A DNA stretch of 64,000 bases from Myxococcota bacterium (GCA_039809465.1 JBDHVB010000001.1:10465-74464); one strand, 5' to 3'. Counted from the first letter of the stretch, positions 1,336 through 51,561 are shown. The notes: generated by a model from the sequence alone, not told the origin. Translations and numbers: made by a program.

Positions 1336-2782
1336 TTGCCGCTCGTCCCGCCTGCGGCGGCGTGGCCTGTCTGGTTCCGCAAAGGCAGCGTCGTCGCCCG
1401 CCCTCCGCTTGCTCATCCCGTTCGTTCTTCTGTGCGTGTCCGCCAACGCGTACGCAGGTGGGCTCTTCTTGGCGCCGCGTGGCGTGCGTCCCTTGGCGCG
1501 CGGCGGGGCGTTCGTCGCTGGCGCGGACGACGTGCACGCGCTCACGTACAACCCGGCCGGCCTCGCCTTCGCGGACAACCAGGTGCTCGTCGACGTGGCG
1601 ATGTCGTTCTACAAGGTCGACTACACGCGGCGCATCACGCCCGACGGCGAGCCCATGCCCATGGTCACCGGCGATGGCTTGCACCTGCCGCTGCCGAACA
1701 TCGGCATCGTGCACGACTTCGGCTTGGGCCCCATGTGGACCTTCGGCGCGAGCCTCGGCGCGGACACACCCAACTTGCAGAACTGGCCCAAGTCGCTCCC
1801 CGACGGCAGCCCCGCGCCGCAGCGCTACGCCATCGAGTCGTACGGCGGCACCGCAATCGTGCGCTTGGCGTTGGGCGGCGCCATCCGGCCCATCCCGCAG
1901 CTCGCCATCGGCATGTCGCTGCAGGCGATGCTCGGCACCTTCGCGGACGTGAAGTCCGTCTCGGCGTGCGACGGCGTCATCTGCACCCAAGCCGAGGACC
2001 CCGAGCACGACACGCGCATCCAGCTCGTCGCCAAGAACCTCGTCGCGCCCGGCATCCACTTCGGCGTCATCGCCAACCCCATCCATTGGCTGCGCCTGGG
2101 CGTCGCCTGGGAGAGCGGCTACAACGTGAGCCGCGTCGGTGAGCTCAACGTGCGCTTGCCGACCGCCGCCGAGTACGACGCCGCGGCCGTGGACCCCGAG
2201 CGCGCGAAGGCTCTGCTGAAGCTGCGGCTCCCCTGGTCGGCGCGCTTCGGCATCGAGGCGCGCAACGCGCTGGTGCGCGTCGAGCTCGCGGCGGTGCACG
2301 ATCACTGGTCGACGTTCGACCGCGTGAGGATCTCGCCGCAAGACGTGCGGATCAACGACGTGCTCGCCATCGGCGACTACCAGATCGCCGACATGTTCAT
2401 CGAGCCGCACTTCAAGAACATCTGGTCGTTCCGCCTGGGTACCGAGTGGACCCCTGAGATCGACGGCAAGCGCGACCTCGTGCTGCGCGCTGGCGCCTTC
2501 TACGAGCCGTCCGCGATTCCGGACGAGCGCTTGAGCCCCGAGTGGGTCGATCTCGACAAGCTCTTCATCACCGTCGGCGCCGGCTACCGCTGGCCCAAGG
2601 TCGCGCTCGATGGCACCTTCGCCTACGGCATCCTCGAGAGCCGCAGCATCCGTAACAGCGAGGTCCTGCAGCTGAACCCCCTGCGTCCGGCCTTCCCGGG
2701 CCGCACCGCGATCGGCAACGGCGATTACAGCGGAAGTGACTTCATTGTTGGCCTGTCGCTGCGCTATTTCCTCGGCGAATGA
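1313..2782 (+). CDS. FadL/TodX (OmpP1) family outer-membrane transporter for hydrophobic compounds
   Basis: Signal peptide (RRRG...LLIPFVLLCVSANAYA). N-terminal FadL-type motif GGLFLAPRGVRPLARGGAFVAGADDVHALTYNPAGLAF. Size (~490 aa) fits a beta-barrel. The start (ATG 1313 or TTG ~1409) is uncertain. Confidence 0.55.
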   Translation: MKSLQNVSCRSSRLRRRGLSGSAKAASSPALRLLIPFVLLCVSANAYAGGLFLAPRGVRPLARGGAFVAGADDVHALTYNPAGLAFADNQVLVDVAMSFYKVDYTRRITPDGEPMPMVTGDGLHLPLPNIGIVHDFGLGPMWTFGASLGADTPNLQNWPKSLPDGSPAPQRYAIESYGGTAIVRLALGGAIRPIPQLAIGMSLQAMLGTFADVKSVSACDGVICTQAEDPEHDTRIQLVAKNLVAPGIHFGVIANPIHWLRLGVAWESGYNVSRVGELNVRLPTAAEYDAAAVDPERAKALLKLRLPWSARFGIEARNALVRVELAAVHDHWSTFDRVRISPQDVRINDVLAIGDYQIADMFIEPHFKNIWSFRLGTEWTPEIDGKRDLVLRAGAFYEPSAIPDERLSPEWVDLDKLFITVGAGYRWPKVALDGTFAYGILESRSIRNSEVLQLNPLRPAFPGRTAIGNGDYSGSDFIVGLSLRYFLGE

Positions 2783-4278
2783 GACGCCTCCTCACCCCCG
2801 TCGTCTGCGCCGCGGCCATTGCCTGCGGCAGCGGTAAGAACCGCCCCGCCGTCACCCGCCTCTCGCAAGAGGCGACCGCCACCGATCCCAAGCTCGAGAG
2901 CTGCGACCTCGACCTCTCCGACGGCAAGCTCCCCTCGAGCTGCGGCACGCTCGTCGTGCCCGAGCTGCGCTCCGACAAGGAGAGCGCGACCCTGCGCATT
3001 CCGTTCCAGCGGTCAAAGCAAGGTGACGGCACACCGCTGCTCTACATCGGTGACGGCCCAGGCAGCTCCGCCTATCAGTTCATGCCGCCAACGGCGCTCG
3101 TGCAGGGCCGCGACCTCTTGCTCGTGGGCGCGCGCGGCATCGACGGTGGCCGCTCGCTCGATTGCCCCGAGGTCGGCATCGCGCTGAAGGGTCCTTCGAG
3201 CAGCTGGATCCCGGAGGTCCCCAAGGCGTTCGACAACTGCATGACGCGCTACAAGCAAGATGGCGTGCGCCTCGAAGGCTACGGCGTCCTGGAGCGCGTG
3301 GCGGATCTCGTCCAAGCGCTCGAGCTCAACGGCATCACCAAGGTGCATCTCGTCGCCGACGGCTTCGGCGCCGTCCTCGCGCTCACCTTCGCGCGCCTCC
3401 ACCCCGAGCAGGTCGAGCGCATCGTGCTCATCGCGCCGACTCCCGCCGAGCAACCGGTCGGCAGCAGCAAGGACGCCGAGCGCGTGCTGCGCAGCTATGA
3501 CGCGAGCGTGGCCGACGCCGTGCGCGACCTCCCGCTCCCGGCGCGCTGGATGATCTACGGCATCGACCGGGAGCGCGTGCGCCTCGCGACCAGCATGCAG
3601 CTCGCCTATCGCCGCGGCGCGCTCGCGAGCGTCGGCGCCTGGAGTGACGCGCTGCACGGCGACTACGCGGGCATTGCACAGGTGAGCTGGGGCGCGGAGG
3701 TCATGCTCGGGAGCAGCTTCGTCTGGGGCGAGGTCGTGCCCATGCTCGCGAGCCTCGATCCCGATGGCGTCGAGATGGTCGACGGCGATCCCACGCTGCC
3801 GTCCGCGACGCTGGTGACGGCGCTTGGGGGCCTTGGCCTCGTGGCGCGAGCGCTCCCCGAGTTTCCGCCGCTGCCGACGGGGATGGTCGACAAGCCCACG
3901 CTCGTCATTCACGGCGATCTCGATCCACGTTACTCCCCCGAGACCACGGCGGCGGCCATGCGTCGCGCCTTGAGCCAACCAACCTTCACCCGCATCGCAG
4001 GCTACGGCTCACCGAGCGAGCTCTGGGCCGTGGCCCCCGACCTGCTGACGCACACCATCACGAGCTTCCTCGACGGCGGCGCGGCGCCCAGCGACCTTGC
4101 ACCACCACTCTCGCCCCCCACCATACGTCTATCGACGCTGGCAAAGCTCATTTTGACCGCGATGGCGGCCTTCCCGCTCGCTGGCGGCGTGCTGGTCTTC
4201 CTGCTCTTCCGGCGCCTGCGCCGCACCATGGCCCGCGACGCAGCGCGGCAGTCGACGCCCCGAGCCCCGGTGCCTTGA
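2779..4278 (+). CDS. lipoprotein with alpha/beta-hydrolase fold and C-terminal TM anchor; nucleophile Ser apparently replaced by Gly
   Basis: Lipobox AIAC|GSG. HLVADGFGAV aligns with the HLVGHSMGG elbow. Hydrophobic C-terminus LILTAMAAFPLAGGVLVFLLF. ATGA overlap with the upstream gene. Confidence 0.45.
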   Translation: MRRLLTPVVCAAAIACGSGKNRPAVTRLSQEATATDPKLESCDLDLSDGKLPSSCGTLVVPELRSDKESATLRIPFQRSKQGDGTPLLYIGDGPGSSAYQFMPPTALVQGRDLLLVGARGIDGGRSLDCPEVGIALKGPSSSWIPEVPKAFDNCMTRYKQDGVRLEGYGVLERVADLVQALELNGITKVHLVADGFGAVLALTFARLHPEQVERIVLIAPTPAEQPVGSSKDAERVLRSYDASVADAVRDLPLPARWMIYGIDRERVRLATSMQLAYRRGALASVGAWSDALHGDYAGIAQVSWGAEVMLGSSFVWGEVVPMLASLDPDGVEMVDGDPTLPSATLVTALGGLGLVARALPEFPPLPTGMVDKPTLVIHGDLDPRYSPETTAAAMRRALSQPTFTRIAGYGSPSELWAVAPDLLTHTITSFLDGGAAPSDLAPPLSPPTIRLSTLAKLILTAMAAFPLAGGVLVFLLFRRLRRTMARDAARQSTPRAPVP

Positions 4279-23418: not shown

Positions 23419-23422
<4 letters not shown>

Positions 23423-26400
23423 GCGTTCACCTGCATGTACTTGCCGGGCTCGTTGGGATTCGGGACGAACCACGCCGGCCGGCCGTCGCGGTCCTTGCCA
23501 AGGCGGGCGCCTGGCACCGGGGGGTTGCTCGCGTCTAGGGCCTGAGGCTCGCTCTCCGCTTTGCCCGGGAGGAGATCGCCGGCGATGAGCTCGCGGGTCG
23601 ACTCCTTGACGATGGCGATCATGCGGTCCACGTCGGCGTCGCTGTGCGCGAGCGTCATGAAGCACGGGAAGCCGTCGAGGATGTGCAGGCCCTTATCACG
23701 CATGGTGACGAACAAGAGGTCGCCGTAGGGCTGATCGGCCGTGAACATGATCTTCCAGAGCGAGGCGAAGCGCTTCACCTTGATGGGCGTGCCGATGTCC
23801 TCGAAGAACTTGTTGAGCTCGGCCTGGAATCGCTCCGCTTTGGCGGTCACGCCCTTCTGCACCGATGGGCCATGGGTCTTGAAGTACTCGCAGACCGCTT
23901 TGGCGGCCACCAGCGCGAACGGGTGGCGCACGAAGGTCCCGGCGAAGTACGTGACGCCGACCGGCGGCGTCGAGTCGTCGCCGAACTGCCAGAAGCCGCC
24001 GTCGAGGGCGTCGAGCCAGGCGCGCTTACCGGCGATGACGCCGATGGGCATGCCGCCGCCGATGACCTTGCCGTAGGTGCCGATGTCCGCTTTGACGCCG
24101 TAGTACTCCTGAGCCCCGCCGGGCCCCATGCGCAGACCGGTGATGACCTCGTCGAAGATGAGCGCGGCGCCCGCCTTCTCGGTGATCTCGCGCAGCGCCT
24201 GCACGAACTCGCGCGGCGCGAAGTCCGGCCGGCGGCTCTGGATGGGCTCGATCATGACGGCGGCGAGCTCGTGGGCGCGCTCGCGGATGATCTTCAATGA
24301 CTCGTCGGTGCCGTAGTCGAGCACCAGCACGTTGGCCACGCCCTCGGGCATGATGCCGGGCGCCGCGGGGAGCGAGCGCAGCGTCTTGGTACCACGCACC
24401 AACACCTCGTCGAAGATGCCGTGGTAGCTGCCGGTGAAGATGGCGATGGTCTTACGGCCGGTGACGGTGCGCGCGATGCGCATCGCGCCCATGACGGCCT
24501 CCGAGCCGGTGTTGCACCAGCCCGCGCGGTCGGCGCCGATGAGCTCGCAGAAGAGCTTGGCGACCTCGCCGGCGAGCACGTGCTGCGGCCCTAGCTCGTA
24601 ACCTTTGTCGAGCTGCTCGCGGATCGCCTTGGTGATGAAGTCGGGGCTGTTGCCGAAGAAGTTCGAGCCGAAGCCATTGAGCGCGTCGATGTACTCGTTG
24701 CCGTCGATGTCCCAGAGGCGGCAGCCCTTCGAGCGGTCGACGACGATTTGGTAGACCAGCTCCTTGGTGAGCGGCCTAAAGCCGGTGACGACGCGGGGGT
24801 CGGCCAAGTGTGGCCGGTGCTCGGTGGTGTACGCCTTCGACTTGGCGGTCTTTTGAGTATAGCGGCGGATGAGCGCGTCGAGGCGGGCTTGCTGCTTGGG
24901 GGTGAGGCTGCCGTCGCTGGTGGTGGTGATGCGGGCGATGGCGCCGAAGGCTTTTTTGACGTCGTACTTTTGGGTGGCTTTGATTTCGTCGTCGGCTTCA
25001 GCGGACTTGGGAGCGGTCGTCGGCGATCGGTGATCGGCAATCGGCGATCGGCCATCGGTCATCGGCAATCGGCTGTCGGCTATCGGCTGTCGGCCATCGG
25101 CGATCGGCAATCGGCCGTCGGCAATCGGCTGTCGGCCATCGGCAGCCATCGGCATCGCCATCATCGGCTGCCCCCCCATCAACGCCAACTGCTGCTGCAT
25201 CACCCTCAGCTGCGCATCGATGAGCTGCCGCAGCGGATCCCCCCCAGCCATCGGCGCGCTCATCATCATCGGCTGCTGCGCAAACATCATCGGCGCGGCC
25301 TGCTGCACTGGCATCTGCGCAGGAGCAGCGGAGGGCTGCGGTGCCGGCGCGGGAGCCGCGACCCCCGCCCCACTCGCCTCGAGGTGCTCGACCAGCGCCC
25401 CCAGCGAGCCAAAATTCTCCGTAAGCTGACGGAAAGTGACCTTCACCCCAAAGGTCTGCTGCACCTTGAGCGCGAGCTGCGTGAGCAGGAGCGAGTCGAC
25501 ACCAAGCTCGAAGAACGACGCGCCAGGATCCGCGCTCGCGAGATCGAGACCCGACACGTCTTCGAACGCGCGCTTCAACGCTTCGAGGGTTGCATCTGAC
25601 TTGGCCATCACTGGACTCTCCTGGACCGGTTGCACGGGGGGTTGTGCAATCACTTCAATAGGCGGCGCCGCGGCGGGTTGTGCTGCCGTCTGAGCAACGG
25701 CGGCATCGACCCAGTGGCGCTTGCGATCGAACGGATAGGTTGGGAGCGCGACGCGGCGCACGTCCTCGTCGGCGTAGACCCGCGACCAGTCGATGGGCGC
25801 GCCCCAGGTCCACATCTGGGCGAGCGCGTTCTGGAAGGCGCTGTCCTCGTCGTCCTCGACGAGACCCTCGGCGAGGCTCGCGACCACGCGGCCCCTGCCC
25901 TTCTCGGCTGGCTGCTGGCGCGCGAGCTGTGACAAGGCGTTGCGCGGCCCGCACTCGAGGAGCAGGCGCGCATCGTCGACAGCGATGGTCGCCATGGCGT
26001 CGACGAAGCGCACCGTGTTGCGCAAGTGGGTGGTCCAGTACTCGACGTCGCACGCGGTCTTGGCGTCGACCCAGGCGCCGTGCACCGTCGAGGCGAACGG
26101 GATGGTCGGCTCCGAGAGCTTGATGGTCTTGACGGTGTCGCGGAACGGCGGCAGCGCGGCGTCCATCATCGCGGAGTGGAAGGCGTGCGAGGTGTGCAGG
26201 GTCTTGGCGGCCACGCCCTTCGCCGCGAGCTTCTCGGCGAAGGCGTTGATGGCTTCGGTTGGGCCCGAGACCACCGAGAGCATCGGCGCGTTCACCGTGG
26301 CGATCGACACGCCGGGCGGCAGCTCCTTGGCGAGCTCGGCCTCGGTCATGCGCACCGACATCATGCTCCCCGGCTGCATCGAGGCCATGAGCCGGCCGCG

Positions 26401-29400
26401 CGTCGCGACCAAGCGCAGACCGTCGTCGAGCGAGAAGACGCCCGAGAGACAGGCGGCGACGAACTCACCGACGCTGTGACCCACCATCGCGGTGGGCTTC
26501 ACGCCGAAGTCCATCCAGAGCTTCGCGGTCGCGTACTCGATGGTGAAGAGGGCTGATTGGGCGATCGCGGTATCGCGCAGGGTCGCGGCGGCGGCATCCG
26601 CTGAAACGGATGAGGGGGGCCAGATGAGATCGCGCAAGTCCTTGCCGAGGTGGGGCTGGAGCTTGTCCGCGCACTCGTCGACGGCGGCGCGGAAGACGCT
26701 ATAGCGTTCGTAGAGCTTCTTGCCCATGCCGACGGTCTGCGAGCCTTGACCGGGGAACATGAAGACGACGTGCACGGCCTTCGGCGGGACGGTGCGGGTG
26801 ATGACTTTGCGGGGCTCGCCGGATTTGAGGGCGGCGATGGCTTCGTCGCGGGAGGTTGCGACGACGGCGCGGCGCTCGGCGAAGGAGCGGCGGCCGAGGG
26901 CGAGGGTGGTGGCGATGGAGGAGAGGGGGAGATTGTCGTTTGCTAAAGCGGAGAGGAAGCGGTCGGTGAGGGTGCCCAAGGTTTGGGGGTTGCGGGCGGA
27001 GAGGGGGAGGACGTAGGGCCGATCGCCGATGACCGATGGCCGATCGCCGATTGCCGATGACCGATTGCCGAAAGCCGATTGCCGATCGCCGATGACCGGC
27101 GCCTCCTGCATGATGACATGCGCATTCGTCCCCCCAACCCCGAACGAGCTCACTCCCGCCCGCCTGATCCTCTCCCCCCTCGGCCAGCTCTTGGCCTGGG
27201 TGACGACCTGGAACGGGCTCTTCGCGAAATCAATCGCCGGGTTCGGCGTGGTGTAATGCAGCGATGCCGGGATGAGCTGGTGGTGCAGCGCCAGCGCCGT
27301 CTTGATGACGCCAGCGACACCCGCCGCGGCCACGGTGTGGCCAATGTTGCTCTTCACGGAGCCGAGTCCGCAAAAGCCGACATCGCCGGTGTGCTTGCGA
27401 TAAGCCCTGGTGAGGCCTTCGACTTCGATGGGGTCGCCGATCGGCGTCGCGGTGCCATGAGCTTCGACGTAGTCGATGTCGCGGGCGCTGACGCCGGCGT
27501 CCTCGAGCGCCAACGCGATGACGGCGGATTGGCCGCTCGACGAAGGAGCCATGAAGCTCGCCTTGTCACCACCGTCGTTGTTCAACGCGGCGCCGGTGAG
27601 CAGGGCGTAGATGGTGTCGCCGTCGCGCTCGGCATCGGAGAGCCGCTTGAGGACGACCATGCCGCCGCCGTCCGAGAAGACGGTGCCGCTCCCCTGCGCG
27701 TCGAACGAGCGCGTGCTGCCGTCGCGCGACATGATGCCGCCGTCGGCGTACACATGACCCGCCTTCTGGGGCACGATCACCGAGGCGCCGCCCGCGAGCG
27801 CGACATCGCAGCGGCCGAGGTGCAGGCTGTCGATGGCTTGGGCGATGGCGACCAACGAGGTCGAGCAGGCGGTGTGGATGCTGATCGCCGGACCGGTCAG
27901 TGACAGGCGGTGCGCGACGCGCGTGGCGACGTAGTCCTTCTCGCTCGCCACCATGACGTTGAACGCGCCGATGCGCGCTTCGACTTCCGGTCGCTTGAAG
28001 AGATTATTCTGAAAATAAGTGTTGAGGTGGGTTCCGGCGAAGACGCCGACCGCGCCGTCGATGCGCTCCGGTACATGCCCCGCGTGCTCGAGCGCCTCCC
28101 AGGCCAGCTCGAGCAACAAGCGCTGCTGCGGGTCGAGCACCGAGGCCTCACCCGGCGTCACGCCAAAGAACGACGCGTCGAAGCTCTCGACATCCTCGAG
28201 CACGCCACGCGCCGCCACGTAGTCGGCGAGCCCGCGATGCGCCGCCGGCAGCTCCTCGGGCCGGAAGCGCCCAATGGTCTCGACGCCCTGCACGAGGTTC
28301 TTCCAGAGCGCGTCGAGATCTCGAGCACCCGGGTAACGCGCCGCCATCCCCACGATGGCGATGGGCTCCGCGGTGACCTTGCGGCTCTTGACTCTCGCGG
28401 GTGCCGCTGAAGCGGACGACTCCCCCGCCACCGCGCCCGCGAGGCCACGCACCGTGGGCTGCTCGTAGAGCTTGGTCACCGGCACGTCGACGCCCTGCGA
28501 CTCGCGCAGCTCGGCGATGGCGCGCACCGCGAGCAGCGAGTTGCCGCCCAAGTCGAAGAAGTTGTCGTCGCGGCCGACGTTGTCGATCTTGAGGATGTCC
28601 GCCCAGCGCTGCGCAATCGCGGTCTCGACGGGACCTTCGGGAGCGACCCACGGCGTCGCCAAATCCGGCCGCACGCGTGGCGGGTCCGGCAGCGATTTGC
28701 GATCGATCTTGCCGCTCGGCGTCTTGGGCAGCTCGGCCAGCATCACGAAGCTCGTGGGCACCATGTAGACCGGCAGCTTCTTGGTGAGCTGGTCACGCAC
28801 TTGCGCCACGAGCGAGCCGTCGTCGTCGCCGACGATGTACGCCACGAGTCTTCCATCGCGGACAGCGGCCGCGGCCTGACGGACCTTGGGATGCTCGGTG
28901 ACGGCGATCTCGACTTCACCCAGCTCGACTCGATGGCCACGGATCTTCACCTGACCATCGGCGCGGCCCAAGAAGTCGATGTCGCCATCGGGGCGCACCC
29001 GCGCGAGATCACCGGTCTTGTAGAGGCGCTCGCCGTTCACGGTCACGAAGCGCTCGGCGGTGAGCTCGGGGCGGTGCAAGTAACCGCGCGCCAGGTGCGC
29101 GCCGCCCAGATAGAGCTCCCCCACTTCGCCCTCGGGCACGGGCTTTTGCTTCTCGTCGAGGATCGGCGTCGTGACGTTCGGCAAAGCGCGGCCGATCGAC
29201 GGCAGCTTGGGCCACGACGACGGCGCGCCGGTGAGCGTCATCGCGGTCACCACGTGCGTCTCCGACGGGCCGTAGTGATTGGCGAGCGTGCACCCAGGGA
29301 TGGCCTCGAAGAAGCGCACGAGCTGCGGCGTCACCTGGAGCTGCTCACCCGCGGTGATCATCTCGCGCAGCGAGGTCGGCGTGAGCTCGGGGGACGGCGC

Positions 29401-30147
29401 GATCTCCGCGAGCGACTGCATGGCGATGAACGGCATGAAGACGCGCGCGATGCGCTCGTCCTTCATGAAGCGCAGCAAGCGCACCGTGTCGATGCGCAGA
29501 TCCTCGTCGACGAGCATGAGCTCGCCGCCAGCGCACCAGGTGCCGAAGAGCTCCTGGAACGAGACGTCGAAGGCGAGCGGCGAGAACTGCAGCGTGCGCT
29601 CACCAACGCCGATCTTCGAATCGCCGAGCTGCCATTGAATGAGGTTCGCGAGCGGCTTGTGGATCATCGCGACGCCCTTGGGGCGGCCGGTCGATCCCGA
29701 GGTGAAGATGACGTAGGCGAGGTGCGACGGACCCGCGACGATGGGCAAGCGCTCGCGACGCGGCAGTGGCGGATCCTTGTCCATCAGGATCGGATCGCGG
29801 CCCGCGACCAGCTCGGCCGTCAGGCTGTGCGCGACCACGTGCTGCACCCGCGCGTCGTCGAGCATCGCCGCGAGACGCTCGCGCGGATACGCTGGGTCGA
29901 GGGGCACGTAGGCGCCACCAGCCTTCAAGACCCCCAGGACGGCGACAGCCATCTCGAGCGAGCGCGGCAGACAGACCCCGACCACCACGTCGGGCCCCAC
30001 TCCGCGTTCGCGGAGCAACACGGCCAATCCGTTCGCGCGGGCATCGAGCTGGGCATAGCTCAGCGTCGCGCCTTGGAAGGTGGCGGCGGGGCTCTCTGGA
30101 GTACGATCGGCTTGGGATTCGAACCGAGAAATGACTGTCGGGATCAT
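23419..30147 (-). CDS. hybrid NRPS-PKS: A-PCP-KS-AT(malonyl)-ACP-aminotransferase (AMT)
   Basis: A domain (YVIFTSGSTGRPKGV, FDVS, NHYGPSETHV, YKTGDL). PCP (GGNSL). KS (TACSTSLVA, EAHGTATPIGDP, GSVKSNIGH). AT (GHSVGEF, HAFH, so malonyl). ACP (LGVDSL). C-terminal class-III aminotransferase (DEVITGLRMG, TYGKVIGGGMP). Start is ATG 30147, or TTG 30231. Confidence 0.9.
25018..25165. repeat. tandem ~21-nt (heptad PIADGRx) repeats inside the ACP-AMT linker
   Basis: atcggc-based periodic DNA. Protein reads ADGRQPIADGRLPIADGRQPIADSRLPMTDGRSPIADHRSP. Confidence 0.7.
27011..27100. repeat. second copy of the GDR heptad repeat, in the KS-AT linker
   Basis: cgatcgccgatgaccg periodicity. Protein reads VIGDRQSAFGNRSSAIGDRPSVIGDRP. 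Confidence 0.65.
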
Positions 30148-30322
30148 CGGCTTTCGCAAGCGGATTGTCCCTGTACCGACGTCTCCGCGCAACGTTTCGA
30201 ATGTATCAAAATGTGATCCGGGAGGGACCAAGCCAGAGTGGGCTGACAGGCGGCGTGACCCTTGTTACATCCCCGGAGTGACACCGATTCCTCACCCTGC
30301 GCAAGCCGAGCGCGCCCTGCCG

Positions 30323-34532: not shown

Positions 34533-35780
34533 CTACCTCCTCTTCTCCGCCGCCCGCGCATGAGCCTCCAACCCCTCGAGCCTCGCCAGCCTCGCCACAT
34601 CATCGATCAACTGCCCCGACGCCCCATCCATCGCAAGCCAGGTGCGCACCCGCAGGAATGTCAGCACCGACAACCCCCCAGTAAAGCGCGCGCTCCCGCC
34701 CGTCGGGAGGACATGATTCGGTCCCACTCCGTAATCACCAAAGACCTCCGCCGCGGCGCTACCAATGAACAGCGCGCCATAGGCATTGAGCTTCCCGCGC
34801 AGCCCATCGATATCGCGCACCTGAAGCTCCAAATGCTCAGGAGCAAGCACATCGGACGCCGCTGCCGCCTCGTCGAAATCACGCGCCAAAACACAAAAGC
34901 CGTTCTTCAGCGCCGCCGATGCCGTCGCCCGGGTGGGAAGCGTCGCAAGCTGCCTCTCCAAAGCCTGGTCGACCGCGTCGGCAAGCTCGACGCTCGTGGT
35001 GATGAGCACCGGCAGCGCGTCGTCGTCGTGCTCGGCTTGCGCGAGCAAGTCGGCGGCGATGATCTCCGCCTTGGCGCTATCGTCGGCGATGACCACGAGC
35101 TCCGAGGGGCCAGCGAGCATGTCGATGGCCACGACGCCCGCGACGAGCTGCTTCGCGGCGGTGACCCAGCGGTTGCCGGGGCCGGCAATGACGTCGCGCG
35201 GCGCGATGAGCCCCGCGCCGTACGTGAACGTAGCAATGGCCTGAGCTCCGCCGACCGCGAGCAACGCGTCCGCTCGAGCGACCGCGGCGGCGGCGAGCGT
35301 CACTTGCGTGGGCTTCGGCGAGGCGACGATGACGTCGGTGACGCCCGCGACGCGCGCGGTGACGGCGGTCATCAGTACCGAGGACGGGAGCGGGAAGCGG
35401 CCGCCGGGCGCGTAACAGCCGGCCGCGCGCATCGGGCGCACCTCGTGACCGGCCTTGCCGCCATCGACCGGCATCTCGACAGCGGTGAGCGACCGCTTCT
35501 GCAGCTCTGCGAAGCGTTGGATGCGCTCCGCGGTCCGCTCGAGCGTTGCGCGGTCGTCCTTTGGCAAGCTCGCCAAGGCGGCGGCGAGCGCATCGGGCCC
35601 GATGAGCAAGGGCTCACCCGCCTTCACGTCGCCCAAGCGCTCAGCGTGCTTGCGGACCGCGGCTTCTCCGCCGGAGCGGACATCGGCGAGGATGGCGGCG
35701 GCCCCGGCGCGGGTCGGCTCGTCGATGGGGTCGAAGCGGGTGCGGGCGATGTCGGCGGCGGCGATGCGGCGGAGAGTCAT
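34533..35780 (-). CDS. hisD: histidinol dehydrogenase
   Basis: Full-length HisD homology (GPSELVVIADDSA, AEHDDDA, GPNHVLPTGG). Confidence 0.85.
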   Translation of the reverse strand: MTLRRIAAADIARTRFDPIDEPTRAGAAAILADVRSGGEAAVRKHAERLGDVKAGEPLLIGPDALAAALASLPKDDRATLERTAERIQRFAELQKRSLTAVEMPVDGGKAGHEVRPMRAAGCYAPGGRFPLPSSVLMTAVTARVAGVTDVIVASPKPTQVTLAAAAVARADALLAVGGAQAIATFTYGAGLIAPRDVIAGPGNRWVTAAKQLVAGVVAIDMLAGPSELVVIADDSAKAEIIAADLLAQAEHDDDALPVLITTSVELADAVDQALERQLATLPTRATASAALKNGFCVLARDFDEAAAASDVLAPEHLELQVRDIDGLRGKLNAYGALFIGSAAAEVFGDYGVGPNHVLPTGGSARFTGGLSVLTFLRVRTWLAMDGASGQLIDDVARLARLEGLEAHARAAEKRR

Positions 35781-37030
35781 TTCTTGTTTCCAGGTCGGCG
35801 CGTGACCTTCAGGGCGCGCTGGTCGAGCACGCGCGCGACGTCGGCGAGGCTCACGCCCTCACGCGCCATGCGAACGAGCGTGAAGTAGAGGACGTCGGCG
35901 GCTTCGTGGGCCACCTCACTCGGCGTCGTGGCGCCCGCGAGCTCCCCTGCTTCCTCGGTGAGCTTCGCGGCGAGCAGCGACGGATCGTCGAAGAGCCGCT
36001 TGGTGTACGAGCCCGCGGGGGCGGTGCGCATGCGCTCGGCGATGAGCTTCGCGGTGGCGGCGATGCCGGTGGTGTTGCCCCAGCAGGTGTCGGTGGCGAG
36101 ATGGCAATAACCGGGAGGAGCCTGCGTGACGGTGAAGCGCAGCGCGTCGGCATCGCAATCGACGTCGACCGCGAGCAGCTTCTGGGTCGCGCCCGAGCTC
36201 TCGCCCTTCACCCACAAGCCGCGCTTGCGCGAATGATAGGCGCCGACCCCGCGCTCGAGCGCGGCCGAGAGGCTCTCCTTGTCGGAGTAAGCAAGGCCCA
36301 GCGCCTGTCCAAGCGCGTCGACGACCACGGTCGGCCACAGCCCGTCGGCACGATCCGACGTCATGAGCGCGGCCAGCGCGTCCGCTAAAGTAAACCGGCC
36401 GGTGTAGAGCGCCATGCCGACCTGCGCATCGGCGCCAATGCGGTGCAGCTCGGCGACGTCCTCGGGCGTGGTCACGCCGCCCGCGATGGTGAGGCGTGCG
36501 TGACCCGCGGCCTTCACCAGCTCGGCGACCTCGCCCATGTTGGTGCCCTGCATGCGCCCTTCGCGCTCGACGAAGGTCACGAGGAAGCCGCTCACGTAGT
36601 CACGCAGCTCGAGCATGCGCTCGGCGATGCCGCGGCCCGTGCCCTGCACCCAGCCGTGGGTGACGACCTCGCCGTGCTTGGCGTCGAGCGCCGCGATGAC
36701 GCGCTCCTTCGGCAGCTCCGCGAGGATCTCGGGCTTCGCGGCGGTGCCGAGCACGACCTTCACCGCGCCGGCATCGAGCCACTCGACGGCGGTCTTCACG
36801 TCGCGGATGCCGCCCCCCACCCGGCAGCGCGCGAGCGGCAGCAGGTCACGGATCAACGCGGCGTTCGAGCCGGTGCCGAGCGCGGCGTCGAGGTCGACGA
36901 CGGCGATCTCACCGACGCGGCCGAACTTCTCGGCGATGGGGCGAGGATCACCGGCGTCGAGCGCCTTCTTCTCGCCGCCGACGAGCTGAACCGTCGAGCC
37001 CCCCTGCAAGTCGATGGACGGAATGATCAC
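35777..37030 (-). CDS. hisA-hisIE: fused ProFAR isomerase (HisA) and PR-AMP cyclohydrolase/PR-ATP pyrophosphatase (HisIE)
   Basis: N-terminal [11 protein letters not shown] HisA barrel. C-terminal VDVDCDADALRF...CHLATDTCWG (HisI). EAADVLYFTLVRMAREGVSLADV (HisE). Confidence 0.8.
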   Translation of the reverse strand: MIIPSIDLQGGSTVQLVGGEKKALDAGDPRPIAEKFGRVGEIAVVDLDAALGTGSNAALIRDLLPLARCRVGGGIRDVKTAVEWLDAGAVKVVLGTAAKPEILAELPKERVIAALDAKHGEVVTHGWVQGTGRGIAERMLELRDYVSGFLVTFVEREGRMQGTNMGEVAELVKAAGHARLTIAGGVTTPEDVAELHRIGADAQVGMALYTGRFTLADALAALMTSDRADGLWPTVVVDALGQALGLAYSDKESLSAALERGVGAYHSRKRGLWVKGESSGATQKLLAVDVDCDADALRFTVTQAPPGYCHLATDTCWGNTTGIAATAKLIAERMRTAPAGSYTKRLFDDPSLLAAKLTEEAGELAGATTPSEVAHEAADVLYFTLVRMAREGVSLADVARVLDQRALKVTRRPGNKK

Positions 37031-37779
37031 AGGCGCACCCGCGCGCCGTTGTCGGCGAGATAACGTTTCACGTCGGCGACCGTGAGGTCTCCGTCGTGGA
37101 AGATGCTGGCGGCGAGCACGTCGGTCGCGCCAGCGCGGAGGGCTTCGAGCAAGTGCGCCGCGTTGGCCGCGCCGCCCGACGCGATGATCGGCACCCGCAC
37201 GGCGTCGCTGACCGCCTTCAAGAGCTCGAGGTCGTAGCCCGAGCGCGTGCCGTCACGGTCGAAGCTCGTGAGCAGGACCTCGCCCGCGCCACGCTCACAG
37301 GCCTCTCGTGCCCAGGCGATGACGTCCTTGCCCGTGCGGTTCTTGCCGCTGTGCGTGACGACCTCCCAGCCCTCACCCTTGCGCGCGGCGTCGATGGCGA
37401 TGACCGCGCACTGTCTGCCATAGCGGCTGGCGATGGCCTCGATGATGCGCGGATCTTTGACGGCGGCGCTGTTGACGCTCACCTTGTCGGCGCCCGCGTC
37501 GAGCAAGACGCCGGCCTGCTCGGCGGAGTCCACGCCGCCACCGACGGTGAGCGGGATCGACAGCTCGCGGCGCACCGCCCGCACCGTGGCGAGCGCGGCG
37601 TTGCGGCCCTCGGTGGTCGCGGAGATGTCGAGCACGACGATCTCGTCGGCGCCCTGCTTCTCGTAGAGCGCCGCGAGCTCGGCGGGCGAGCCGGCGTCGC
37701 GCAGCTCCTGGAAGCGCACGCCTTTGACGACGCGGCCGTCCTTGCAATCAAGGCAAGGGATGATCCGGGTCTTCAGCAT
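37027..37779 (-). CDS. hisF: imidazole glycerol phosphate synthase cyclase subunit
   Basis: [20 protein letters not shown] and [21 protein letters not shown]. Confidence 0.85.
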
Positions 37780-37841
37780 GCGCAAGCGCTCCACCAGGAC
37801 GCAGCAATCGGGAGACAAGGGATGATGCGGGTCTTCAACAT
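37773..37841 (-). other. 22-codon uORF created by duplication of the hisF 5' end (MLKTRIIPC...); its stop overlaps the hisF ATG
   Basis: ATGTTGAAGACCCGCATCATCCCTTG (37813-37838, minus strand) is a near-copy of the hisF start ATGCTGAAGACCCGGATCATCCCTTG (37754-37779). The uORF ATG is 2 nt after the hisH TGA. GAGGG RBS. Confidence 0.35.
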
Positions 37842-37843
37842 CG

Positions 37844-38443
37844 TCAGGAGCCCTCGACCCAACGCGCCAGCAAAGCCGCGCCCCAGGCGCCCGAGAGCTC
37901 GGGATGGAACTGGCAGGCGAGCACGTTGCCGCGCTCGAGCGCCGCGACGAACTCACCGCCGTGGTTGGCGGTCGAAGCGGTCCACCCCGCAGAAGCCTCG
38001 GGCAAGCGATAGGAGTTCGCGAAGTACGCGACACCGCTCTGCACGAAGCGCGCATCCGGCGCGGCGCTCACGTCGTTCCAGCCGAGCTGCGGCACACGCA
38101 CCTGTCCGCCAAAGCGGCCAATCGAGCCATCGACGACACCGAGGCCGCGCACGCCTGGCGACTCGCTGCTCTCGCGGCAGAGGAGCTGCATCCCCACGCA
38201 GATGGCGAGCAAGGAGTGATTCTTCCGCACGCGCTCGATCAGGGCTGGCACGAGGCCCTTGTCGACGAGCTCCGCCATCGAAGCACCGAACGCGCCAACG
38301 CCAGGCAGCACCACGCGCTCCGCTTCAGCGACACGCTGTGGGTCCTGCGTGAGCTCGACGGCATGCCCCTGCCGCTCGAACGCGGCGCGCACCGACGCGA
38401 GGTTCGCGGTGCCAGTGCGGACGACGACGATGGCGCGGCTCAC
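37844..38443 (-). CDS. hisH: imidazole glycerol phosphate synthase glutaminase subunit
   Basis: Class-I GATase motifs (ICVGMQLL, FHPE). Confidence 0.85.
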   Translation of the reverse strand: MSRAIVVVRTGTANLASVRAAFERQGHAVELTQDPQRVAEAERVVLPGVGAFGASMAELVDKGLVPALIERVRKNHSLLAICVGMQLLCRESSESPGVRGLGVVDGSIGRFGGQVRVPQLGWNDVSAAPDARFVQSGVAYFANSYRLPEASAGWTASTANHGGEFVAALERGNVLACQFHPELSGAWGAALLARWVEGS

Positions 38444-47058: not shown

Positions 47059-47134
47059 TGGAGCGGGCGACGAGGCTCGAACTCGCGACCCCAAGCTTGG
47101 GAAGCTTGTGCTCTACCAACTGAGCTACACCCGC
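47059..47134 (-). tRNA. tRNA-Gly (anticodon CCC)
   Basis: Cloverleaf folds by hand. Acceptor GCGGGTG/CGCCCGC. D-arm GCTC-AGTTGGTA-GAGC. Anticodon stem CAAGC/GCTTG with loop TTCCCAA. T-arm GCGAG-TTCGAGC-CTCGT. CCA encoded. Confidence 0.8.
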
Positions 47135-51473: not shown

Positions 51474-51492
51474 AGACTTGGGCTGAAATACG

Positions 51493-51561
51493 TAGCTCAG
51501 TTGGTAGAGCACAAGCTTCCCAAGCTGAGGGTCGCGGGTTCGAGCCCCGTTGCCCGCTCCA
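51493..51561 (+). pseudogene. degenerate partial copy of tRNA-Gly(CCC), D-arm to CCA
   Basis: About 88% identical to positions 8-76 of the 47059-47134 tRNA. Two substitutions break the anticodon stem. No complementary 5' acceptor strand upstream. Confidence 0.55.

Follow-up and report, generated by a model that had tools for sequence, protein, structure and literature searches.

The two genes encoding the heterodimeric HisH-HisF enzyme are held apart, in an uncultured Myxococcota-like bacterium of high GC content (66%), by an insert of ~62-64 nt that is best read as a tandem duplication of the hisH/hisF junction, since decayed. The insert creates a 22-codon mini-ORF between the two genes. Junction duplication combined with a termination-reinitiation relay that couples HisH and HisF through this mini-ORF offers the best explanation of the locus, and on balance a probable one; from the sequence, we infer that the mini-ORF is translated and contributes to hisF expression. 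The stretch of DNA analysed, referred to below as the window, is 64,000 nt long. An earlier note on it, made from the sequence alone, had described a duplicated hisF 5' end inserted between hisH and hisF, and comparison with outgroup and conspecific loci bears this out as a real, lineage-specific feature.

The his genes and the mini-ORF all lie on the minus strand of the window. The ORF list gives the order hisG (40936-40040), hisC (40043-39018), hisB (39021-38440), hisH (37844..38443), hisF (37027..37779), a hisA-hisI-hisE fusion (37030-35777) and hisD (35780-34533), in which every his junction is a 4-nt overlap (ATGA/GTGA) except that of hisH and hisF, which stand 64 nt apart. HisH, the glutamine amidotransferase subunit of imidazole glycerol phosphate synthase (199 aa), is 77-81% identical to its relatives by tblastn, and orthologous calls carry the Pfam GATase domain. 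The extent of hisF, encoding the cyclase subunit (250 aa), is supported additionally by alignment to homologues, all of which align with the window HisF from residue 1. Promoter-like and terminator-like sites were sought in 37400-38200, and none was found. The gene downstream of hisF (35777-37030, minus strand) encodes a 417-aa triple fusion of HisA-like (PF00977), HisI (PRA-CH) and HisE (PRA-PH) domains and shares 4 nt with hisF on one side and with hisD on the other; gene calls in the relatives L161-L163 and in the conspecific contig L165 show this fusion too. Elsewhere in the window, a 2270-aa NRPS/PKS-like ORF (23419-30231, minus strand) contains 7-nt/21-nt repeat arrays of ATCGGCN-type heptads at 25020-25144 and 27018-27098. 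Although each of the two arrays, ~1.9 kb apart, is the reverse complement of the other as DNA, both are in frame, encoding the repeated linkers 'PIADGRQ/L' (x ~6) and 'SAIGDRP/SVIGDRP'.

The mini-ORF (22 codons plus TGA; 37773..37841, minus strand) is defined by its sequence, its translation and its conservation in three conspecific assemblies. It nearly fills the 64-nt gap and is out of frame with both neighbouring genes. Its geometry is as the earlier note had described: the ATG (37841) lies 2 nt past the hisH stop codon (TGA, 37846-37844), a GAGGG motif at 37855-37851 precedes it, and the reading frame closes with a TGA laid over the hisF ATG (gcATGcTGA). A further in-frame TGA follows the hisH stop two codons on, within ATGTTGA. 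At the other end, the mini-ORF TGA (37775-37773) begins 1 nt past the hisF ATG (37779-37777), forming an ATGCTGA stop-start overlap (37773..37779, minus strand) of the same motif found at the hisH/hisF junction of 45 related loci. Each start is served by a Shine-Dalgarno (SD)-like motif placed 9 nt upstream of its ATG, GAGGG (37851..37855) within the hisH 3' end for the mini-ORF and GGAG (37789..37792) within the mini-ORF for hisF, both on the minus strand. The calculated anti-SD duplex of the mini-ORF (-6.4 kcal/mol) is the strongest among the eight starts of the operon, and that of hisF (-5.6 kcal/mol) ranks third, just behind hisB at -5.8. The translated peptide contains a Trp-Trp pair and four Cys in its 22 residues and is encoded with zero His codons.

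The 5' half of the insert originated by duplication of the start of hisF. The 26-mer at the hisF start, ATGCTGAAGACCCGGATCATCCCTTG (37779-37754), recurs once, at 37841-37816, with two mismatches (24/26), and comparable 26-mer matches in dinucleotide-preserving shuffles of the window numbered zero. The earlier note had recognised this upstream recurrence but scored it at 23/26 and placed the copies 61 nt apart; the spacing measured here is 62 nt. In a repeat search, the match between the copies reaches 29 nt (26/29, 90% identity), again at 62-nt spacing, such that the 5' 29-30 nt of the insert correspond to hisF codons 1-10. On this identity to 37751-37779 and on the outgroup alignment, the segment at 37813..37841 (minus strand) is a vestigial hisF 5' end, designated copy 1. 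Recognition of a duplicated hisF start was thus correct as far as it went; the insert's 3' half, probably a hisH end that has since decayed, was overlooked, and would make the whole junction the duplicated unit.

Duplications of this kind can be fabricated during assembly, by a mis-joined overlap or a strain chimera, and the earlier note had flagged a duplication artefact as possible. One example occurs among the loci retrieved: L037 (2087-2330) has an exactly duplicated hisH-hisF junction around a run of N, a scaffolding artefact that mimics the mini-ORF finding and serves as a negative control. The window copies, by contrast, differ from each other (2/26 mismatches plus an indel), and the sequence between them is unique and contains no N. 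Conspecific contigs were retrieved by exact-protein look-up of HisB and HisH in NCBI MAG, ENA and Logan assemblies; the same look-up with the window HisF gave zero matches. Three further assemblies, generated from other samples and by different pipelines, carry the identical 64-nt gap: GCA_034286235.1 (NCBI MAG), ERZ25038564 (ENA) and SRR31850041 (Logan), at 99.1-99.7% identity to the window. An artefactual origin is therefore scarcely credible, and the window duplication is not a product of assembly. In the junction-spanning contigs (L165, L167 and L169), the mini-ORF is the same save for one synonymous CGC>CGA change in L165; this amounts to one SNP against 0.6 expected, among strains too alike to gauge constraint. 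The window and these contigs have one junction unit each, a copy number constant over four strains.

Comparison of the junction in related genomes, suggested in the earlier note, found the insert in conspecifics and not in closer outgroups, and the insert is therefore lineage-specific. The outgroup loci L001, L002, L161, L162 and L163/164, with HisF 82-92% identical to that of the window, all read hisH GGCTGATGCTC hisF with a 1-nt TGATG overlap, and the alignment shows a clean 62-nt gap in these five loci opposite the window insert. A sixth outgroup relative has the same 1-nt hisH/hisF overlap, from gene calls alone. In the outgroup alignment, it is the upstream ATG, that of the mini-ORF, that falls at the ancestral hisF ATG position. 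Both window copies share derived states absent from the outgroups (a codon 2 ending in G, and ATC CCT), and the duplication therefore arose within the window lineage. Relative to the outgroups, copy 1 has two private synonymous changes (CTG>TTG and TGC>TGT) and a 2-nt insertion past codon 10, and copy 2 has one fixed and one polymorphic change, both synonymous; these copy-specific counts are too few to demonstrate selection on the vestigial copy. A metagenome scan returned no relative with HisF identity above 69% and was of no help in dating the event. At 37844-37852 (minus strand), the hisH frame of the window reads TCC TGA CGA TGT TGA, with two in-frame stops, in place of AGC GGC TGA TG in L001/L002. 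The comparison suggests that the lineage shifted from a TGATG to an ATGYTGA junction, through TGA>CGA and a CTC>CTG change in hisF codon 2, and that the premature TGA was gained later.

The 3' half of the insert, GATTGCTGCGTCCTGGTGGAGCGCTTGCGC (37780..37809, minus strand), is probably a decayed hisH 3' end (..LLARWVE..). An anchored global alignment against the 34 nt preceding the mini-ORF ATG matches 20 positions (P ~0.02 versus mono- and dinucleotide shuffles, 0.007 versus random genomic 30-mers). When 100 hisH 3' ends of other genomes were compared, LLRRWLE-coding ends matched best (17/19 identical with two 1-nt gaps, P ~0.02). Unanchored local alignment to the hisH 3' end of the window itself is not significant (P = 0.37). 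Derivation from hisF nt 31-80 was considered and rejected, the alignment again being non-significant (P = 0.53), and a blastn-short search of the 64-nt insert against the 64-kb window and 170 fetched loci gave no match besides the insert and the hisF 5' end. Divergence is much greater in the 3' half than in the 5' half, a contrast for which duplication in one step and uniform drift thereafter do not account; it could reflect conversion of the 5' half by hisF, selective pressure on the initiation region, or filler DNA introduced at the event. Taken with these alignments, hisH ancestry of the 3' half, by duplication of the whole junction and later erosion through small indels, is the most parsimonious reading and is moderately supported.

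The duplicated unit would have joined approximately the last 11 codons of hisH, embedded SD motif included, to the initial 10 of hisF. Of the two copies, the downstream one would have remained attached as the working start of hisF, and the upstream copy of the hisF start would have stayed beside the hisH stop, opening a chimeric 22-codon mini-ORF in which a 2-nt frame slip separates hisF codons 1-10 from the decayed hisH tail. Gene-start duplications of the window type are rare in the material covered: a scan of ~1 Mb on both strands, for 24-mers recurring with no more than 4 mismatches 20-200 nt upstream, returned only the window locus, its conspecifics and the L037 artefact. This filter misses the related case of L005, described below. 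A search for N-terminally extended HisF proteins as in-frame junction duplications was unproductive, the 259-285-aa homologues being extended C-terminally with the exception of P0050 (269 aa), whose short N-terminal extension lacks a duplicated HisF start.

Related loci indicate how tightly this junction is ordinarily organised. In the fetched related loci, 107 pairs are adjacent and unfused, and in 101 of them no more than 3 nt lie between the hisH stop and the hisF start; ATGNTGA, usually ATGYTGA, occurs at 45 of these junctions and TGATG at 39. The mini-ORF ends on hisF as hisH does elsewhere, closing with ..A-C-* in the manner of ..P/A/S-C-*. Where the gap is larger, an unbroken stop-to-start chain is present only in the two duplication cases, the window and L005; it is lacking in L015 (16-nt gap), L017 (28 nt) and L016 (253 nt), from which it follows that uncoupled hisH-hisF junctions are tolerable. 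Terminal inverted repeats, GTGGTGTGATTCAGA ... TCTGAATCACACCAC, flank the L016 gap (2748-3000) and give it a MITE-like appearance. At ~33 loci among L111-L159, mostly from soil metagenomes (e.g. L112:2878-3060), a single reading frame spans both genes, joined by a linker of ~17 aa, LLERWLAGANGAPAPALTGSTPGLLPRVVPCLDV; the protein P0125, one of the long HisF homologues, is also a bacterial HisH-HisF fusion.

A literature search returned nothing specific on hisH/hisF coupling. Published reporter work shows that the final 15 nt of an upstream ORF are enough for termination-reinitiation coupling and that coupling is nearly lost by an intergenic spacer of ~20 nt; among short overlaps, genes for heteromeric complexes are over-represented (PMC10666635). 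With coupling nearly abolished at that distance, a bare 64-nt gap should uncouple hisF from hisH. Coupling should be regained in two steps where the spacer carries an ORF that opens 2 nt past the hisH stop and closes at ATGCTGA, each hand-over in the window being close, with +2 nt from the hisH stop to the mini-ORF ATG and an overlap of the mini-ORF stop with the hisF start. In the proposed relay, ribosomes terminating on hisH would reinitiate 2 nt further on at the mini-ORF, read its 22 codons, terminate atop the hisF start and reinitiate on hisF, keeping HisH and HisF translationally coupled over a gap otherwise too long. The frame of the final hand-over is set by the length of the duplicated unit: at 62 nt, or 2 mod 3, the mini-ORF stops at the TGA within ATGCTGA, 1 nt past the hisF ATG. 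The translational-coupling relay envisaged in the earlier note is thus consistent with the geometry, the SD-like motifs, the comparative data and the published distance limits (PMC10666635), and is retained here as the likeliest function.

An independent parallel case is provided by L005:2834-3007, in a Planctomycetota groundwater MAG (JACOTG010000061.1) whose HisF is 70% identical to that of the window. The hisH-hisF gap of this locus, 152 nt, consists of ~2.8 tandem copies of a 53-nt unit (76% matches), each of which opens with a hisF start (ATGYTGAARCG, MLKRR) and closes with a hisH-like tail (..W-V/L-A-C-*). The array encodes three 19-codon ORFs at 2842-2901 (MLKRRPNSRRVVRHQWVAC), 2895-2954 (MLKRRPNSRSVLGLWWLAC) and 2948-3007 (MLKRRTMSRRVLLRRRDAC), each stopping within the ATGYTGA at the start that follows, which for the third ORF is the hisF start. 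L170, an 83% relative of L005, has a plain junction, TGGCTCGCATGCTGA (ATGCTGA), and no array. An 18-nt stretch of this ancestral junction is kept verbatim inside the L005 array, which proves a junction-duplication origin for L005. The same heterodimer junction shows this pattern in two unrelated lineages, with one unit in the Myxococcota-like species and three in the Planctomycetota MAG. The unit lengths, 62 and 53 nt, are both 2 mod 3, the sole frame class in which the ORF closes on the start that follows.

The differences among the L005 units hint that the mini-ORFs are translated. Codons 1-5 are present in four copies whose four variable sites are all synonymous, and units A and B differ at five positions within their first 27 nt (nine codons), again all synonymous, with a simulated P of ~0.002 in what was a post-hoc test; unit C is without similar constraint. 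Self-duplication of the junction could be a recurrent route to chains of translated relay mini-ORFs, a home-grown counterpart of mycobacterial interspersed repetitive units (MIRUs) in which selection keeps in-frame unit lengths (2 mod 3 at ATGYTGA). This broader proposal is speculative and rather doubtful; if it holds, selection might conserve the N-terminal codons of the mini-ORFs because they are translated.

The main rival to the relay, and a serious one, is that the insert is a neutral duplication scar in which the mini-ORF is an unselected by-product, hisF initiates de novo from its GGAG motif and any translation of the mini-ORF is incidental. This account differs from the relay only in effect size, and it is a real though unlikely possibility. 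The SD-like motif of hisF is normally spaced, so that hisF may be able to do without the relay and rely on de novo initiation. Folding of 37880-37740 gives a stability no greater than that of shuffled sequences (z = 0.28), leaving the hisF start free of sequestration by significant RNA structure. The uncoupled gaps of L015, L016 and L017 and the absence of measurable constraint between strains are also in keeping with neutrality, as is chance alone: the correct frame arises one time in three per event, or ~1/9 for two lineages. Against this reading, the 3' half of the window insert is heavily decayed, yet the ATG, open frame, SD motif and terminal TGA are intact, and the three L005 units, despite their divergence, all retain ATG, open frame and TGA. 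The exclusively synonymous differences between L005 units A and B, with the same post-hoc caveat, and the near-invariable close spacing of hisH and hisF likewise argue for maintenance of the relay over a scar.

A regulatory function was also considered, in which the mini-ORF would sense an amino acid through its TGG TGG pair or four Cys codons, with ribosome stalling over the hisF start region modulating translation. The Trp-Trp pair and the four Cys in so short a peptide lend this idea some appeal, and one L005 unit likewise reads ..LWWLAC. The first TGG, at least, is most simply inherited from the conserved RW(V/L/I)E motif of the hisH C-terminus, however, and the ATGCTGA junction forces a terminal Cys. 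Furthermore, we know of no link between either Trp or Cys and HisF, which counts against a sensing role. The element is internal to the operon instead of at its head and is missing from all other lineages examined. No Rfam family matched the mini-ORF region; the Rfam matches to tRNA lie elsewhere in the window, at 47062-47134 (minus strand) and 51491-51552 (plus strand), the latter weak and partial (35.4 bits, model positions 6-65). An upstream ORF gating hisF, the alternative put forward in the earlier note, therefore finds neither an associated structure nor a sensing logic beyond chance-level Trp-Trp and Cys content, and is very unlikely.

The classical histidine attenuator was tried and rejected, failing on every defining feature: the element has no His run, no terminator-like site and an operon-internal position. 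The earlier note had already discounted such an attenuator on the lack of His codons, and the absence of a terminator or significant structure and the internal position point the same way. The likeness to hisL is confined to the association of a short ORF with a his operon; unlike hisL, the mini-ORF is without His codons or a terminator/antiterminator and lies between the fourth and fifth genes. As it ends on the hisF start, moreover, there is no room for attenuation.

Closer analogies are found among systems in which a short ORF delivers ribosomes to a neighbouring start. Leader-ORF-dependent translation is known from tap-repA of plasmid R1, repY-repZ of ColIb-P9 and uof-fur in E. coli, in which the leader ORFs are targets of antisense or small RNAs or open a sequestering structure. 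The mini-ORF resembles these leaders, and engineered bicistronic designs (cited in PMC12548453), in that a short, abutting ORF would bring ribosomes to the main start, but it lies between two genes and not in a 5' leader, and neither a sequestering structure (z = 0.28, as above) nor a regulator is evident. With ordinary coupling where two genes overlap (ATGA, TGATG; Huber et al. 2019, 2023) it has in common the proximity of stop and start, an SD motif within the upstream ORF and a product that is a heteromer; it differs in that ribosomes are predicted to reinitiate twice in succession, by way of a 22-codon spacer ORF that is itself non-functional, where ordinary pairs hand over once and directly. 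HisH-HisF fusions, of the eukaryotic HIS7 type and in bacteria, represent an alternative enforcement of 1:1 co-expression at the same junction, whereas the window genes stay separate.

The nearest known analogue is the mini-ORF of MIRUs, elements whose insertion sites are start codons and whose ORF is coupled to the gene that follows, limiting harm (Supply et al. 1997, per review PMC12548453). In the window as in MIRUs, a sequence of tens of nucleotides stands between co-directional operon genes with the stop of its mini-ORF coupled to the downstream start, and tandem arrays are possible, as in L005. This mode of insertion (PMC12548453) and a similar size class (46-100 nt) might suggest that the insert is a MIRU-like mobile intercistronic element that arrived with its own coupled mini-ORF, and not a local duplication. 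The homology of its 5' 29 nt to hisF itself, including the derived substitutions of the lineage, speaks against such an arrival, as do the lack of any other copy of the 64-nt insert or its 3' half in the 64-kb window or the 170 loci and the constant copy number in four strains; insertion of a mobile element is accordingly highly improbable. MIRUs are dispersed, multi-copy and apparently mobile, with strain-variable copy number, whereas the window unit is confined to a single locus, derives from its own junction and is present in one copy in each of the four strains. The coupling spacing differs as well, being -4 in MIRUs and -7 (ATGYTGA) in the window mini-ORF. Single-locus, self-derived and fixed in copy number, the window mini-ORF is outside the MIRU family.

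What is new in the window is a probable relay ORF made by duplication of the coupled junction itself; the principles of translational coupling were already known. On present evidence, the mini-ORF is a neat example of them and represents neither a new principle nor a new kind of regulation. HisH and HisF are needed in equal amounts, and the locus shows the outcome when a mutation separates their genes by 64 nt: a duplicated junction brings its own ribosome-binding site, start and stop, and can thereby rebuild the hand-over as a two-step relay. For annotation, the case advises caution, as a 60-70-nt "intergenic" gap in a tight operon may conceal a translated spacer ORF. If confirmed, the relay would provide a natural test of how far termination-reinitiation can be chained, and a test case both for the tolerance of intercistronic insertions and for the origin of MIRU-like coupled mini-ORFs.
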